A DNA stretch of 59,884 nt, from positions 1 to 59,884 of the forward strand of contig JAQTPW010000005.1 of NCBI GenBank assembly GCA_028712565.1, read 5' to 3'. The notes under the pieces were generated by a model. It did no database searches. It was not told where the DNA came from and saw nothing but the letters and a program-made list of their open reading frames with translations. This DNA is from Minisyncoccota bacterium. Lineage in GTDB: Bacteria; Patescibacteriota; Minisyncoccia; Minisyncoccales; JAQTPW01. This document shows, in pieces, positions 6,636-26,300 of this stretch (positions are counted from its first letter, which is position 1; every line of letters starts with the position of its first letter). Both the position numbers and the translations under genes were made by a program.

Positions 6636-7271
6636 ATGAGAAAAAGCGAATTGGCGGCGATTTTAATAATTTTGATTTCTTTTGTCGTCGGAATTTATTT
6701 TTACCCGAAGATGCCTCAAGAAATGGCGTCGCATTGGAATTCTCAAGGCAAAGTTGACGGTTATACTTCAAAATTCTGGGGTCTGTTTCTGATGCCGATT
6801 ATTTCTGCAGGAATGTTTCTGCTATTTGTTTTAATCCCGAGGATAGACCCCTTGAAAGAAAACATTAAAACCTTCAGGAAATACTTTGATTGGTTTATTT
6901 TTTTAATTTTCGTTTTCCTTTTTTATCTTTATGTTTTAACTATAGTTTGGAATTCCGGCTATAAATTTGATCTTGTCCGGTTTTTGGCGCCGGCTTTCGG
7001 CCTGCTTTTTTACTCTGCTGGGGTTTTGGTGGAAAACGCAAAAAGGAATTGGTTTATTGGGATCAGAACTCCCTGGACTTTGAGTAATGACGTGGTTTGG
7101 GATAAAACGCATAAGCTTGGGGGGAGATTGTTTAAAATTTCGGCTGGAATTTCTTTTTTGGGAATTTTCTTTCCGGATTTTGCAATATATTTTGTGATTA
7201 TCCCTGTAATTTTGTTTTCTATTTATCTTTTTGCTTATTCTTATCTTGAATATAAAAAAAATAATAAATAA
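6636..7271 (+). CDS. SdpI/YhfL-family membrane protein (DUF1648 N-terminus)
   Basis: YPKMPxxMASHWNxxGxxDGY at the N-terminus and NWFIGIRTPWTL in the core are the signatures I associate with DUF1648 + SdpI. Confidence 0.75.
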   Translation: MRKSELAAILIILISFVVGIYFYPKMPQEMASHWNSQGKVDGYTSKFWGLFLMPIISAGMFLLFVLIPRIDPLKENIKTFRKYFDWFIFLIFVFLFYLYVLTIVWNSGYKFDLVRFLAPAFGLLFYSAGVLVENAKRNWFIGIRTPWTLSNDVVWDKTHKLGGRLFKISAGISFLGIFFPDFAIYFVIIPVILFSIYLFAYSYLEYKKNNK

Positions 7272-7278
7272 TATTTAT

Positions 7279-7479
7279 ATGGAAGAAGAAATCTTAAAAA
7301 AAATTGAAGCGCAAGATAAAAAATTGGAAGAAATTTATCGCTCCATTGAAAAGACGAGAAAGTATTTTCTTTGGTCGCTAATTATAACGGTGGTAGCAAT
7401 CGTTCTGCCGTTAATCGGGCTCGCCTTTGCGATTCCGGTATTTTTGAAGACGCTCGATATTGGCAGTTTGGGTTTTTAG
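7279..7479 (+). CDS. small coiled-coil plus single-TM protein
   Basis: Trimmed to the ATG at 7279 (MEEEILKKIEAQDKKLEEIY...). It has one TM helix, and a strong terminator lies downstream. Confidence 0.5.
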   Translation: MEEEILKKIEAQDKKLEEIYRSIEKTRKYFLWSLIITVVAIVLPLIGLAFAIPVFLKTLDIGSLGF

Positions 7480-7521
7480 TTTTTAATTAAAATAATAAAC
7501 TTAAAATCTGAAATTGAAAAG

Positions 7522-7551
7522 AAAAAAGCCATCTTATAAGATGGCTTTTTT
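7522..7551 (+). terminator. intrinsic terminator
   Basis: GCCATCTT (7528-7535) pairs with AAGATGGC (7538-7545), flanked by an A-run and TTTTTT. Confidence 0.8.
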
Positions 7552-7758
7552 GTAGGGCAAGAGAGTAACAAAGGAAAGTAAATTTTTTTCTTGTTTCTTT
7601 TGTATTCTTTCTGTTTCTTTCTCTTTATCGTCGAGTAGTGATAAGAACGCTATCGCTTAATTAGTAATATTGCTTGTATCCAAGTAAGACGCAGGCATTT
7701 TATTTTTTATAAGCGTAATAAGTGTAATAATTCAGGTATTTTTGCGTCATTATTATAT

Positions 7759-7833
7759 ATGGCAAATAAAACTAGTTTCTTTTTCTTTTATTTTGACTTC
7801 TTTGAGAAAGAGGCTAGTTTTTACTTGAAATAA
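7759..7833 (+). CDS. Phe/Tyr-rich leader peptide MANKTSFFFFYFDFFEKEASFYLK
   Basis: A 24-codon ORF that is too short for the ORF track. It has 9 Phe and 2 Tyr, with FFFFYFDFF at codons 7-15. It lies 100 nt upstream of the DAHP synthase and is embedded in alternative helices. There is no obvious SD. Confidence 0.6.
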   Translation: MANKTSFFFFYFDFFEKEASFYLK

Positions 7834-7871
7834 TTGATTTAATATAAAGTTTGCCAAAATTAGCCTCTTTC
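7771..7871 (+). promoter_or_regulatory. attenuator segments 1, 2 and 3 (anti-antiterminator / antiterminator)
   Basis: Segment 1 (7771-7785) pairs with segment 2 (7804-7818), giving 15 bp including 3 G-U. Segment 2 (7806-7821) alternatively pairs with segment 3 (7856-7871), giving 16 bp including 1 G-U. Confidence 0.6.
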
Positions 7872-7892
7872 GAAAGAGGTTTTTGTTTTTTT
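7861..7892 (+). terminator. attenuator terminator (segments 3:4)
   Basis: CCTCTT (7864-7869) pairs with AAGAGG (7874-7879) and is followed by TTTTTGTTTTTTT (7880-7892). Confidence 0.6.
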
Positions 7893-7933
7893 GAAAAGTT
7901 AATATTTGGAAAATAAATATAGGAGGAAAAGGA

Positions 7934-8950
7934 ATGATCATCGAAATGCAAAAAGGCGCAACAGAAAAAGACATTAGGCAGGTAGTTAAACGAGTTAAGG
8001 AAAATGGATTCGATATCCAAATGAATCAAGGCAAAGAAAAAACAATTGTCGCCGTTCTTGGAAGTGGGACAGAAAGTATTGAGACCCAGATTTTTGAAGT
8101 TCTGCCCGGAGTAGAAAAAGTAATCAGGATTATGAAGCCGTACAAGCTGGCTTCCCGGGATTTCGAAAAAGAAAACACGATTGTGGAGGTGGGTAATGTT
8201 AAAATTGGAGGAAATGCAGTCGTAATAATGGCAGGTCCCTGTTCGGTAGAAAGCAAAGAACAAATTATTTCCTGCGCAAAAATAGGAAAGTCATTGGGGG
8301 CAAAGATATTAAGAGGCGGCGCTTTCAAGCCGCGAACTTCCCCATTTGCCTTTCAGGGATTAAAAGAAGAAGGGCTTAAATTATTGGCAAAAGCCAAAGA
8401 AGAAACCGGATTGCTGATTATTACCGAGATAGTGGCTCCAGAAGATGTGCCGTTGGTCGCAGAATATTCCGATATTCTTCAAATCGGAACAAGAAATATG
8501 CAAAATTACCGGCTTCTTGAAGCGGCTGGAAAATCTGGAAAGCCAGTTCTTTTGAAAAGAGGATTTTCTGCGACTCTGGAGGAATGGCTTACTGCGGCTG
8601 ATTATTTATTAAGGGAGAATAACCCGAACGTAATTTTATGCGAGAGAGGCATAAGGACATTCAGCAATTCAACCCGTTTTACCTTAGATTTGGGAATAGT
8701 GCCGGTCGTGAAAAAATATACGCATTTGCCGATTATTGTTGATCCCAGCCACGCCGCCGGGCATTGGGAATACGTTCCCTCTCTTTCAAAAGCTGCAATT
8801 GCAGCCGGCGCAGACGGAATTTTAATAGAGATTCATCCGCAGCCCAAAAAAGCTCTTTCTGACGGACCCCAATCGTTAACTTTTTCAGATTTTTCCCGAT
8901 TAATGGCAGAACTTAAACTTCTTGCAAAGGCGGTGGGGCGGGAGATCTGA
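7934..8950 (+). CDS. aroF: 3-deoxy-7-phosphoheptulonate (DAHP) synthase, type I-beta, with N-terminal ferredoxin-like regulatory domain
   Basis: AGGAGG at 7921-7926. At 338 aa it is collinear with the Thermotoga-type enzyme as I recall it (GPCSVES, LRGGAFKPRTSPxxFQG, IQIGxRNxQN, PVLLKRG, VDPSH). An extra ~65-aa N-terminal domain is present. Confidence 0.9.
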   Translation: MIIEMQKGATEKDIRQVVKRVKENGFDIQMNQGKEKTIVAVLGSGTESIETQIFEVLPGVEKVIRIMKPYKLASRDFEKENTIVEVGNVKIGGNAVVIMAGPCSVESKEQIISCAKIGKSLGAKILRGGAFKPRTSPFAFQGLKEEGLKLLAKAKEETGLLIITEIVAPEDVPLVAEYSDILQIGTRNMQNYRLLEAAGKSGKPVLLKRGFSATLEEWLTAADYLLRENNPNVILCERGIRTFSNSTRFTLDLGIVPVVKKYTHLPIIVDPSHAAGHWEYVPSLSKAAIAAGADGILIEIHPQPKKALSDGPQSLTFSDFSRLMAELKLLAKAVGREI

Positions 8951-8992: not shown

Positions 8993-9018
8993 GCGGCTTC
9001 AGCTTGAAGCCGCTTTTT
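8993..9018 (+). terminator. intrinsic terminator
   Basis: GCGGCTTCA (8993-9001) pairs with TGAAGCCGC (9005-9013) and is followed by TTTTT. Confidence 0.85.
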
Positions 9019-9111
9019 AATTGGTTTTCTTGCGGTTATGAACCTTGGATTCTTAATTATTATCTGTTTGGGTTAGTTTGATAATAGATTCCCGAAACAA
9101 AAATAATGCAG

Positions 9112-9240
9112 GCGTTCGGAAAAATGATTTTCGGTACACGCTCTGCGCCCCTGCGAGGCGCAGGCTCAATTCCCTCGGCAAATTTTCCGCCTTGGGCGGA
9201 AGCCATGCAATTTGCCTGCGGATGGAACCGAAAATCATTT
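9112..9240. repeat. GC-rich structured repeat, copy A
   Basis: A 13-bp closing stem (9112-9124 with 9228-9240) encloses a core whose 77 nt (9131-9207) are identical to 13154-13230. Internal hairpins are CTGCGC/GCGCAG, GGCAAATT/AATTTGCC and TTCCGCC-TTG-GGCGGAA. Confidence 0.85.
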
Positions 9241-9395
9241 CCCCCTCACTAAAAAAAAGCACAACGCGGAATTTACCATGAAAACTTTATTGCCTCGCTT
9301 AAAAATATGTAAGATACTTTGTTGAAAATTTAATTTATTTTTCATAGAAATTATGGTATAAAAAAGAATAATCTAAGAATTCAAAACAGATTAGC

Positions 9396-9507
9396 CCCGT
9401 AGTAGAACCTGAGGGTTCACTACGGGACAGGCCCCGTAATACATCTTCGACTCGCTTCGCGATTACCCCCGCTTATGAAGCGGGAAGTCGAAGATGCTAT
9501 ACGGGGC
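9396..9507 (+). other. GC-rich nested hairpin island (candidate structured leader or small RNA)
   Basis: H1 (9396-9426) has a 13-bp stem with one bulge. H2 (9431-9507) has 8 bp + 11 bp outer helices (GCCCCGTA/TACGGGGC and CATCTTCGACT/AGTCGAAGATG) and an inner CCCGCTT-ATG-AAGCGGG hairpin. Confidence 0.45.
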
Positions 9508-9523
9508 ACGCGCTCTAAGCAAA

Positions 9524-9550
9524 TTAGCACTCGCAGGTCTTGACTGCTAA
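9524..9550 (+). promoter_or_regulatory. CIRCE (HrcA operator)-like inverted repeat
   Basis: The sequence TTAGCACTC-gcaggtctt-GACTGCTAA compares with the consensus TTAGCACTC-N9-GAGTGCTAA, giving 17 of 18 matches with an exact 9-nt spacer. Confidence 0.75.
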
Positions 9551-9567
9551 TTTCAATATGATAGAAT
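9540..9567 (+). promoter_or_regulatory. sigma70-like promoter of clpB overlapping CIRCE
   Basis: TTGACT at 9540-9545, a 16-nt spacer, TG at 9559-9560, and TAGAAT at 9562-9567. Confidence 0.6.
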
Positions 9568-23333: not shown

Positions 23334-26300
23334 ATGTCTAATATGAAAAGTAAAATAAAAATTTTAACAATTTTAACTTTTGTTATTTGTTTTTCTTTCT
23401 TAACTTTTAAAGCGGCTTTTGCCTACCCGTCTTTTGACATAGGGCCCACAAAATCAACTACCGCTGAAGTGAAAGTAAAAGCTGGTAGTGATTGGCAGAA
23501 TGTAATTTATTTTGTTGCCCAAGCCAGCAGCACAGATGACTATATCAAGCAGGTTCAATTCACGGTTAACTGGATTGCCGGAACTTTTGGCGGAACTGAA
23601 ATTTCTCAAATCGCACTTTATAAAAGCACTGATTCTACTATGGATACCAGCGGCGATACTTTGGTTGCATCAAAAAATTCAGCATCTATTAATTACGGGG
23701 CCTTAACTACATTTACTTGGTCAGGAACTACAACGGAAAATATGTTTTCAGCAACTGGTACTGATTATTGGTTTTATCTGGTTTTAAAAACTGATGCTTC
23801 TGTATGGAGCGACAACGGCGCCGGGGACGACGATCAGATAACGATAAGCATGGCCGCAGCCGATGTCGTATTAAGAGACGTGGCAGGTTCTGGAGATGTT
23901 AATTCTACAAGCACTCCAACTACTGATGCTTTCACAGCCGATGTTACAGCTCCAACATTGCCGGCAGCAAATATTGATGCCAAAAACAGCGTCCAGCCAA
24001 ACACGGTTACTGTTGAAATGAGTGAAGTCATAACCACAAGCACCGCAGAAACGGCAGGAAATTGGACGGTGACAAATAATGGAGCCACTATTACATATAG
24101 TATAGCTTCTGCTTCTTTGGGAGGCGATGGAAAAACAGTTACTTTGACTTTGGCAGCGCTAGATCCTGATGTTGCTACAACATTTATTACAAATGCTGAA
24201 ATAGACAACCATATTAAAGTAATCCCAAGCACTTCAATTGTTGATAAAGCAGGAAATACTTATGGCGGTTCAACTATTACAGAGTCTGGAGGTTCTCCTA
24301 CAAAAGATACAACAGCTCCAACCCTTGCCGCTGCCAATATTGTTGTTGATAACAGCGTCCAGCCAAACACAATTACTTTAACCTTCTCAGAAAAACTAAA
24401 TACTACCACTGCCCAAACCGCAACCAACTGGACAGTGACAAATAATGCAGGAGACATCACATACTCAATAGCTTCTGCATCTCTAAGCAATACAATAGTT
24501 ACTTTAACCTTGGCAACAGTCAACCCATCTAACGCTACCACCTTTATTACCAATGCCGATGTTGACGCCCATATCAAAGTTACTCCTTCGGCGAATATAA
24601 CCGATGTGGCAGGGAAAACATATGCAGCAGGCGAGATTACAGAAGCTGCAGCTGTCCCGACAAAAGACAGCTCAGCACCAACACTCGCCGCAGACGCCAT
24701 TGTAGTCAACAACAATGTCCAGCCAAACACAATTACTTTAACCTTTAATGAAAAGTTAAATACTACGACTGCAAACGATCTTACTCACTGGACAGTGACT
24801 AACAATGCAGGAGACATCACATACTCAATAGCAACTACATCTTTGAGCAATGCAATAGTTACCTTGACTTTGAGCGCAGTTACCGCCACAGATTCTGCTT
24901 CATTTATTACCAATGCCGACGCCGACGCCCACATCAAAGTTACTCCAAGCGCTCATATAACTGATGTAGCAGGCATTACTTACGCAGCAGGTGAAATCAC
25001 AGAAGCAGGAGCTACTCATACAAAAGATGAGACCGCGCCAACTATTCCAGTTGGAAACATTGATGTTGATAACAGCGTCCAGCCAAACACAATTACTCTT
25101 GAAGCCAGTGAAAAACTAAACACCACAACTGCAGAAACCGCAGCCAACTGGACAGTAACCAGCAATTCAGGAGATGTAACATATAGTATTAATTCTGTGT
25201 CTCTGGGCACAGACAGTAAAACAGTTACTTTAACCTTAGCTGCCGTAAATCCAAATTCAGCTACCACTTTTGTTACAGCTTCCCAAATCGCAGCCCATAT
25301 TAAAGTGGTTTTCTCAGGAAGTTCGGTAACTGATGTGGCAGGCACTGCTTTTGCAGACGAAACTGTTACAGAATCAGGTGGTTCTCATACAGAAGACTCA
25401 ACAGCTCCGACTTTAGCTGCCGCAAACATTGTAATTAACAACAGCGTCCAGCCAAACACAATTACTTTAACCTTCTCAGAAAAACTAAACACCACAACCG
25501 CAGAAGATGCAACCCATTACACAATAATAAATAATGCAGGAGATATCACATACTCAATAGCTTCTGCATCTTTGAGCAACACAATAGTTACTTTAACCTT
25601 GTCTGCTGTCAGCTCTGCAGATCCTACCACCTTTATTACCAATGCCGATGTTGACGCCCACATCAAAGTTACTCCAAGCACTCACTTAACAGATGTTTCA
25701 GGAAAAGCATATGAGGCAGGACAAGTTACAGAAGCTGCAGCTGTCCATACAAAAGATTCAACTGCGCCAACCCTGGCCGCTGCCAATATTGTTGTTGATA
25801 ACAGCGTCCAGCCAAACACAATTACTTTAACCTTCTCAGAAAAACTAAACACCACAACCGCAGAAACTCTAACCAACTGGACAGTGACAAATAATGCAGG
25901 AGACATCACATACTCAATAGCTTCTGCATCTCTAAGCAATACAATAGTTACTTTAACCTTGGCAACAGTCAACCCATCTAACGCTACCACCTTTATTACC
26001 AATGCCGATGTTGACGCCCATATCAAAGTTACTCCTTCGGCGAATATAACCGATGTGGCAGGGAAAACATATGCAGCAGGCGAGATTACAGAAGCTGCAG
26101 CTGTCCCGACAAAAGACAGCTCAGCACCAACACTCGCCGCAGACGCCATTGTAGTCAACAACAATGTCCAGCCAAACACAATTACTTTAACCTTTAATGA
26201 AAAGTTAAATACTACGACTGCAAACGATCTTACTCACTGGACAGTGACTAACAATGCAGGAGACATCACATACTCAATAGCAACTACATCTTTGAGCAAT

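Follow-up and report, generated by a model that had tools for sequence, protein, structure and literature searches.

Three kinds of described system bear on the locus reported here. In the attenuators of Escherichia coli pheL-pheA and trpL-trpEDCBA (RF01859 and RF00513), a short leader open reading frame (ORF) carries a run of regulatory codons, the RNA can form alternative 1:2, 2:3, and 3:4 hairpins of which the last is an intrinsic terminator, and a stalled ribosome favors the antiterminator. In Corynebacterium glutamicum aroR-aroF, a Phe-Tyr-Phe leader precedes an operon containing 3-deoxy-D-arabino-heptulosonate 7-phosphate (DAHP) synthase and, in the account of Neshat et al. (2014) given in PMC11802643, ribosome stalling under Phe limitation raises transcription; the attenuator was predicted in PMC4046766. 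Finally, some actinobacterial sensory ORFs lack a Shine-Dalgarno (SD) sequence: the mycobacterial polycysteine ORFs are leaderless, and stalling on them remodels the downstream RNA (bioRxiv 10.1101/834739), while the C. glutamicum ilvB leader is translated without a ribosome-binding site (RBS), according to the citation of Morbach et al. (2000) in PMC4046766. Here, we describe a comparable element in a 59,884-nt contig of a Minisyncoccota bacterium (JAQTPW010000005.1, forward strand; hereafter, the window), where a Phe/Tyr-rich leader, three alternative helices, and a terminator stand at 7759-7892, just upstream of a DAHP synthase gene. We read it, with a probability of about 85%, as a ribosome-mediated (leader-peptide) transcription attenuator that would set DAHP synthase expression by the supply of charged tRNA-Phe and tRNA-Tyr; many relatives would also sense tRNA-Trp.

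How closely does the locus follow the classic plan? The leader ORF, MANKTSFFFFYFDFFEKEASFYLK, occupies 7759-7833 on the forward strand and runs for 24 codons from an ATG start to a TAA stop, as an earlier reading of the window made from its letters and ORFs (hereafter, the sequence-only reading) had proposed and as we reread from the sequence; homologous ORFs exist at 16 other loci. It contains 8 Phe and 2 Tyr codons, so that the earlier Tyr count stands and the earlier count of 9 Phe does not. Its regulatory run, TTC TTT TTC TTT TAT TTT GAC TTC TTT (F F F F Y F D F F; 7777-7803, forward strand), has the eight aromatic codons within nine positions that were claimed for it. When both strands of the window were scanned for ORFs of 10-60 codons (~1190), this was the top-scoring one and the only one with eight aromatics per nine residues.

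Four RNA segments, all on the forward strand, accompany the ORF. Segment 1, the 5' strand of the anti-antiterminator (7768-7785), overlaps codons 4-9 and with them the first three Phe codons, and it is placed by the minimum free energy (MFE) fold and by covariation of its conserved core. Segment 2 (7804-7821) lies within the leader ORF and can pair with segment 1 or with segment 3 (7856-7871); segment 3 has two alternative partners, segment 2, with which it forms the 16-bp antiterminator, and segment 4, with which it pairs through 7862-7869. The intrinsic terminator (7862-7892) consists of a stem (7862-7869/7874-7881), the loop TCGA, and the T-tract TTTTTGTTTTTTT at 7880-7892. Checked base by base, the 15-bp helix of 7771-7785 with 7804-7818 includes three G-U pairs, and the MFE fold lengthens it to 18 bp (7768-7785 with 7804-7821). 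Likewise, 16 bp, one of them G-U, join 7806-7821 to 7856-7871, and this helix and the terminator are mutually exclusive. The 3:4 core, CCTCTT (7864-7869) with AAGAGG (7874-7879), lies within a hairpin that a terminator scan placed at 7862-7881. Both long pairings of the sequence-only reading are thus borne out by bases and by folding, and its 3:4 pairing and T-rich tract are where it had put them.

Which of these states is favored? Folding of 7755-7895, a check that had been proposed with the earlier reading, gave an MFE of -35.6 kcal/mol (RNAfold) with 1:2 and 3:4 formed, against -31.4 kcal/mol for the forced 2:3 state. Dinucleotide shuffles of the same region gave -22.1 ± 3.3 kcal/mol (z = -4.06), and none of 200 was as stable. 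As isolated hairpins, 1:2, 2:3, and 3:4 have energies of -19.6, -20.7, and -8.5 kcal/mol, respectively. We represented the ribosome as a mask that began 15 nt 5' of the A-site codon and ended 14 nt past the first base of that codon. Placing the A site at each of the first five aromatic codons (7777-7789) gave a predicted fold with 2:3 and no terminator; with the A site at 7792-7801, the footprint touched segment 2 and the terminator was back in the predicted fold. The proposal that a stall on the Phe codons masks segment 1 and favors 2:3 is therefore matched by a predicted switch of fold under footprint masking.

The following course of events would account for these features. Transcription would begin at the leader ATG (7759) or a short way upstream of it, and a ribosome, initiating independently of an SD sequence and coupled to transcription, would read the 24-codon leader as RNA polymerase proceeds. 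With aromatic aminoacyl-tRNAs ample, the ribosome would pass the Phe/Tyr run and move over segment 2 (7804-7821); if the ribosome had already gone, segment 1 would re-pair with segment 2. In both cases, segment 3 would be free for segment 4, and the hairpin with its U-tract (7862-7892) would end transcription ~40 nt before the DAHP synthase start. With Phe-tRNA or Tyr-tRNA scarce, the ribosome would stall at 7777-7789 and cover segment 1, leaving segment 2 exposed; segments 2 and 3 would then form the 16-bp antiterminator, no terminator would arise, and DAHP synthase would be transcribed.

Do relatives carry the same element? Loci were collected by exact-protein look-ups and by one metagenome scan with N-terminal-domain alignment. 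A contig scan with the full DAHP synthase protein was dominated by universally conserved motifs and contributed only one close locus (L001); its other 79 loci (Chloroflexota, Dormibacterota, and similar) served as out-groups and controls. We found 17 distinct homologous leaders, the window included, 5' of orthologous genes for type-Ibeta DAHP synthase or for pheA and DAHP synthase on metagenome contigs of Patescibacteria or Candidatus Nealsonbacteria. The closest DAHP synthase proteins are 66-78% identical, are metagenomic, and, where named, come from a "Patescibacteria group bacterium" or "Candidatus Nealsonbacteria"; the gene order DAHP synthase-ClpB-trypsin-like protease is common to the window and several relatives. 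These nearest relatives and the shared synteny agree with the earlier description of the genome as one like those of the candidate phyla radiation (CPR). Leader peptides in the family include MDNQISKTFFWFYAFFKEGADLEFRN (L001), MVKRTSSSFYFYFYFAFFGKGAGLFLKT (L081), MMTQTNQKGYYFFFFFAFSGKEVSLRLTS (L083), MANQINRNFWGYYYAFFGKEVSLSCFS (L088), MDNQTRKTYTFWFFYFFKKERLV (L093), and MEKQISLNSTNWFYFYFTFFGREASLDFE (L176), and ten further relatives have the same pattern. The order in the relatives is leader, hairpin with U-tract, and then the SD sequence of DAHP synthase; at one locus (L087), the leader precedes pheA (PDT-ACT), which is followed by DAHP synthase, and genes neighboring the leader in relatives include prephenate dehydratase, prephenate dehydrogenase, and TyrRS. 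The window sequence itself was matched only in landfill DNA metagenomes, and for L083 no RNA run was listed.

Is the leader coding? The ATG and an in-frame stop are kept at 17 of 17 loci, and every family leader has a run of 5-8 Phe, Tyr, or Trp codons. Between the ATG and the conserved segment 2 core, the leaders differ in length (53-71 nt), but in 15 of 16 cases the spacing equals 2 mod 3. Between segments 1 and 2, the ORF frame is 65% Phe/Tyr/Trp with no stops, against 22% and 29% with 3 and 8 stops in the other two frames. Synonymous codons vary (TTT 69, TTC 23, TAT 23, and TAC 7), and TGG, counted 8 times, is found in 8 of the 17 leaders. Across ~170 DAHP synthase upstream regions, ORFs in which at least seven of nine codons are aromatic occurred on the forward (gene) strand only, never on the reverse complement, and the forward strand gave such an ORF in every family member. 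The retained frame, the frame-specific aromatic bias, and the synonymous variation together indicate that the leader ORF is coding.

The helices are conserved as well. For the 1:2 and 2:3 tests, blocks from a structure-blind MAFFT alignment (A2) were joined gap-free (A3). Helix 1:2 was 88.6% paired, with 6 of 11 pairs compensatory (20-51% paired in slid-partner controls), and helix 2:3 was 92.6% paired, with 9 of 16 compensatory (36-61% in the same controls); in each case, 0 of 500 shuffles reached the covariation score. The terminator helix 3:4, in an alignment of 20 matches fitted to the structure by covariance model, was 95.4% paired with 5 of 8 pairs compensatory, and the hairpin is present in 16 of 16 relatives. 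RNAalifold, run on the unfitted alignment A2, predicts 2:3 with 13 of 22 pairs compensatory, extending it such that the last Phe codons pair with the 3' arm of the terminator. The same variable positions change together across segments 1, 2, and 3: the variable letters read CTAG/CTAG/TTAG in the window, CCAG/CTGG/CCAG in L081, and TAAC/GTTA/TAAC in L088, with TCAG/CTGA in L001. Per-sequence duplex energies range from -4.7 to -19.4 kcal/mol for 1:2, from -15.1 to -27.1 for 2:3, and from -7.6 to -14.4 for 3:4. A covariance model, R1, trained on 16 sequences of which the window is one, scored 96.7 bits (E = 1e-15) against the window at 7759-7889, a training sequence. Outside the training set, R1 matched L099 (65 bits), a second copy in L102 (55 bits), and an L081 paralog at E <= 8e-7, and more weakly L096 at 2654-2797 (E = 2e-4). 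Aligning the regions upstream of aroF orthologs had been put forward with the sequence-only reading; the alignment returned the aromatic-codon ORF in frame and the three pairings with compensatory changes. The family's ORF, its covarying helices, and the footprint masking all point to the pheL/trpL-type geometry predicted earlier.

Could the peptide, rather than the codons, be the sensor? A translated leader might undergo TnaC-like nascent-peptide arrest in response to free aromatic amino acids, or the hydrophobic peptide might have a function of its own. Residues beyond the run do look conserved (M-x-N-Q-T-S at the N terminus and F-F-G-K-E/G after the run), as either idea would have it. However, segments 1 and 2 fall on exactly these positions, which covary as RNA (CTAG/CTAG, CCAG/CTGG, TCAG/CTGA, and TAAC/GTTA), and the number and order of Phe, Tyr, and Trp vary freely within the run, as expected for codon counting and not for an arrest motif. 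We therefore regard a peptide-level sensor as improbable.

Where would transcription and translation of the leader begin? The sequence-only reading saw no recognizable SD before the leader ATG; we obtained the same result in the window, and the SD is also missing in most relatives. SD-like sequence is lacking in 15 of the 17 leaders, against 16 of 17 downstream genes with an AAGGAG-type SD, and the missing SD is, on this comparison of sequences, a property of the family and not a defect of the window. In 12 of 17 loci, a 10/12 match to a sigma-70 promoter (TTGACA-N16-17-TAnAAn) ends 8-15 nt before the ATG, a spacing that implies a 5' untranslated region (UTR) of ~1-8 nt and suggests leaderless or near-leaderless translation of the leader. 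A subgroup made up of the window, L081, L088, L094, and L096 is without the TTGACA box and shares a TGtAATAAT-like box 27-31 nt upstream and TTTTnnCGTCAT(A/T/C)AT immediately before the ATG. In the window, this putative promoter or 5' region (7723-7756, forward strand) comprises the extended -10-like box TGtAATAAT at 7723-7731 and the motif TTTTTGCGTCATTAT at 7740-7754. The CATTAT within the motif (7748-7753) is an alternative -10 candidate; it could be a -10 setting the start at the ATG, or transcription may begin near 7738. TTTTTGCGTCATTAT and the TGtAATAAT before it may act as a promoter or as an element of the 5' UTR, or may be bound by a protein. The motif is also present before the Val/Leu leader of L081; we rejected it as a general promoter motif of the genome because it occurs once in the 60-kb window, where canonical TTGACn-N16-18-TAnnAn promoters precede clpB, degV, and the gene at 23334.

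Several observations weigh against attenuation as we propose it. The window leader is without a recognizable SD and without a canonical -35 or promoter, which leaves the initiation of its translation unproven. A ribosome at the window stop codon covers 7816-7845, that is, only the last ~6 nt of segment 2, and in a static model a 10-bp partial 2:3 helix can still form. The sequence-only reading had a ribosome at the stop (7831) favor 3:4 by masking segment 2; that step holds only in part. In our modeling, a better account of termination is that a ribosome traverses segment 2, or occupies it as segments 3 and 4 are synthesized, or that helix 1:2 forms again behind the ribosome or after it. Many relatives have a 2:3 helix of much greater stability than 1:2 (e.g., -18.9 vs. 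-5.3 kcal/mol), and the ribosome-free default in those relatives may thus be read-through; where 2:3 outweighs 1:2 in this way, the decisive event may be occupancy of segment 2 by the ribosome. A per-codon footprint scan of all relatives with a thermodynamic read-out was uninformative for the ribosome-free state: the antiterminator was the equilibrium MFE fold in many of them, and terminator pairs were defined too loosely. The masking result rests on the window, the case for the family on geometry. In L137, L174, L176, and L177, the aromatic run begins at codon 12-13, such that a stalled ribosome would sit in the 1:2 loop and not cover the core of segment 1 (nt 10-20). Finally, the leader is not universal among close relatives. 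L091, with 69% DAHP synthase identity, is without a leader (region 2100-2500), and the more distant DAHP synthase loci of the same scan have no such element, which makes it specific to one clade. The L099 copy (88-210) has decayed: segments 2-4 and the Phe run are kept, and the start codon and segment 1 are gone. A TTGACT-N17-TTTAAT promoter in L099 would begin transcription inside the old leader.

The decayed L099 copy and the bare L091 locus, together with the want of a canonical promoter upstream of the window leader, also lend something to the view that the window's hairpin and T-tract are a leftover constitutive terminator or insulator, with DAHP synthase transcribed from its own promoter beyond 7892 and both ORF and pairings mere relics. 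The window copy, however, is intact in all features, with 96.7 bits against the family model; the 41 AT-rich nt between the T-tract and the DAHP synthase start (7893-7933) held no promoter-like site in a promoter scan; and the upstream gene is already terminated at 7522-7551. A relic seems to us about as improbable as a sensing peptide. Least probable of all is a genuine switch sensed by a protein, a tRNA, or a small ligand (in the style of a T-box, TRAP, PyrR, or a riboswitch) with an ORF that is incidental in a U-rich tract, for which the SD-less ATG, the conserved noncoding TTTTTGCGTCATTAT just upstream in the window's subgroup, and a weak PyrR-site match at 7795-7890 (23.8 bits, E = 0.5, gathering score 54) can be cited, against a frame that survives indels in 15 of 16, a frame-specific aromatic bias with zero in-frame stops, synonymous codon variation, an ATG and stop conserved at 17 loci, no Rfam family at threshold, and no T-box specifier, T-box sequence, or GAG/UAG repeat array seen by eye.

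What would the attenuator control? The gene at 7934-8950 encodes a DAHP synthase (PF00793) that carries a ferredoxin-like (FXD) regulatory domain (PF18152) at its N terminus, and these domains uphold the earlier identification of the downstream gene as the entry enzyme of the pathway. DAHP synthase is the first enzyme of the aromatic pathway and commits carbon to all three aromatic amino acids, a point at which sensing of their tRNAs would be biologically sensible; in the Thermotoga-type enzyme, the N-terminal domain mediates feedback by Tyr and Phe. The gene is of type Ibeta and, with its SD sequence (AGGAGG, 7921-7926), spans 7921-8950 on the forward strand, followed by its own terminator at 8993-9013. 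Upstream, the bidirectional intrinsic terminator of the preceding gene (7231-7479) lies at 7522-7551 and forms the 5' boundary of the DAHP synthase transcription unit. Leader and DAHP synthase, bounded by these two terminators, thus form a self-contained, monocistronic unit, and the same two sites are instances of intrinsic terminators used elsewhere by the organism. No further aromatic-pathway genes were found within the 60-kb window.

Is the element already described? Nowhere in the window did an Rfam family reach its gathering score, and a search of 7450-8000 by E value returned no leader family on the element and no T-box match. Two candidates from these searches were rejected: Phe_leader, whose matches (RF01859; 29.0 and 28.3 bits, gathering score 55) fall at 7453-7584, on the bidirectional terminator of the upstream gene, and Thr_leader, with 24 bits. 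Both are terminator look-alikes; together, they span 7453-7629, off the leader. Compared with E. coli pheL and trpL, the locus shares the codon run, the alternative hairpins, and a predicted stall-dependent antiterminator, and it differs in having no sequence or covariance-model similarity, in the SD-less window leader, in a run that mixes Phe, Tyr, and, in relatives, Trp, in its target (DAHP synthase, not pheA or trpE), in a stop codon that stands 10 nt past segment 2 and not before it, and in its Patescibacteria-type host.

In function, the closest precedent is the aroR-aroF attenuator of C. glutamicum, which likewise has an aromatic-codon leader peptide 5' of a DAHP synthase operon. That system, compared here by description, belongs to Actinomycetota and has a different leader sequence with three regulatory codons, whereas the CPR family has 5-8 aromatic codons, often with Trp. 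The leaderless or RBS-less actinobacterial small ORFs resemble the present one in lacking an SD and in starting at or near the 5' end of the transcript, as our leader may, and in the reshaping of downstream RNA structure by a stall on the codon run, as predicted here; the mycobacterial Cys elements sequester the RBS and act on translation, whereas here the target would be a terminator. In the literature searched, no report links Patescibacteria or the CPR with leader-peptide attenuation. The sequence-only reading called such attenuation unusual for a CPR-like genome; it is indeed undocumented in Rfam and in that literature, but similar aromatic leader ORFs stand before DAHP synthase operons in several other uncultivated lineages. 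We rate the element as a new lineage-specific CPR attenuator family with a classic mechanism, not as a new mechanism.

The usual picture of the CPR, or Patescibacteria, is one of reduced metabolism, few regulators, and limited biosynthesis of amino acids. If our reading is correct, this Nealsonbacteria-like clade, at the least, would synthesize aromatic amino acids de novo and regulate entry into the pathway by sensing charged tRNA, and would therefore rely on coupled transcription and translation and on intrinsic termination. The element would also lend itself naturally to testing SD-independent or leaderless initiation in the CPR, and R1 is ready for annotating an RNA element absent from Rfam. 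More broadly, the scan shows aromatic leader ORFs before type-Ibeta DAHP synthase operons to be far more widespread in uncultivated lineages than present annotation indicates.

Leaders of related and unrelated kinds were seen at other loci. Paralogous leaders in L081 (5103-5340) and L096 (2654-2896) stand directly upstream of a tRNA-Val(AAC) gene; their peptides, MGKQMNLTSVLLLLVLSKGRLVRFIE and MGKQMNLILVVLLLVVLRQRLGWVHQ, are rich in Val and Leu, and both of these loci have 1:2, 2:3, and 3:4-like pairings and the terminator AATCTGGCCAAGCGGCCAGATTTTTT. These two, the only such loci found, may be leader-peptide attenuators controlling a tRNA gene. L102 has, downstream of DAHP synthase, another aromatic leader at 1900-2035, MKNRTSPISVNNFFFYFFTFLKKG, which has a TTGACA promoter of its own and scores 55 bits against R1; the contig stops before the regulated gene, and the family may thus control more than DAHP synthase. 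A related element in L088 (1682-1853), MTNQTNYQPNLVTVFTLGLFVKWTGDYLAGFIGNK, scores 33.5 bits against R1, shares its terminator with the tRNA-Val leaders, and precedes a 70-aa ORF. In L175 (1-330), a gene of 376 aa stands before DAHP synthase, and upstream of that gene are a different Tyr-rich small ORF (…SAESYYYSHLYTR…) and a terminator.

Aromatic leaders were also found in other lineages. Two kinds are unrelated in sequence to the CPR family. In Anaerolineales (L035, ~2444-2530, and L036), a leader ORF, MKHTAFNAFYFYFYFYGFQKRKPLAAFN, with a TTGACA promoter 12 nt before its ATG, and a terminator precede an aroH-type chorismate mutase and DAHP synthase; in Smithella (L057, ~2788-2920), an aromatic leader ORF, MMDRKLTANNNAYYYWFYTYFASVCPSLRMTC, and a terminator precede DAHP synthase. 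Archaeal-looking cases have small ORFs that end in aromatic runs (MGKIRSFEVVSKELYYYFSFRY, MVNLTKAGNSIWFELNTPAFFFYFM, MINLTYNKNFADFWFVYFAFFFYFR, MSYITNVRSVRSKLDWFIYFFYFN, and MVNIGFAFYNWFSNFNYFFFYFKY), at loci that include L041 (~2590-2660), L042, L049 (~176-246), and L003 (~2827-2900). They lie ~20-25 nt downstream of TTTAAATA-type TATA boxes and upstream of chorismate mutase and DAHP synthase, in metagenome-assembled genomes of Methanofastidiosa (L041, L042, and L049) and on unassigned contigs. ORFs of the same type are present on the unassigned contigs L163-L168, in L163, L164, L166, and L168 ~175-200 nt upstream of DAHP synthase. These archaeal-looking cases may be leader-peptide sensing in Archaea. 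The Val/Leu leaders, the second aromatic leader, the L088 element, and the leaders of other lineages could be more novel than the DAHP synthase attenuator itself. A bolder extension, against which we would still wager, is a ribosome-sensed regulon ("ribulon") of Patescibacteria, in which SD-free leaderless peptides share a 5' module (M-x-N-Q-T-S, which is segment 1) and one switch architecture, paralogs (L102, L081, and L096) control other loci, including tRNA-Val feedback, and archaeal upstream ORFs (Methanofastidiosa and others) extend aromatic sensing to Archaea.

Three further features of the window deserve mention. Between the upstream terminator and the leader lies a 50-nt polypyrimidine tract, tttttttcttgtttcttttgtattctttctgtttctttctctttatc (7580-7632), of which no conserved counterpart was seen in the relatives, whose upstream gene is htrA. 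Between the DAHP synthase terminator and the clpB promoter (TTGACT-16-TAGAAT, 9540-9567) lie ~400 nt of GC-rich sequence (9100-9540), in which neither a tRNA nor a tmRNA was found and to which Rfam gave no match even with a cutoff of E = 0.1; long inverted repeats were seen by eye at 9390-9540, and the region may be an unannotated structured RNA. Finally, 32027-59442 holds a long co-directional cluster for nucleotide sugars, nonulosonic acids (NeuB, NeuC, PseB, PseC, and PseF-like), GDP-fucose, and polysaccharide, which includes a B12-binding radical SAM enzyme and represents a strikingly large outlay on glycans for a small genome.

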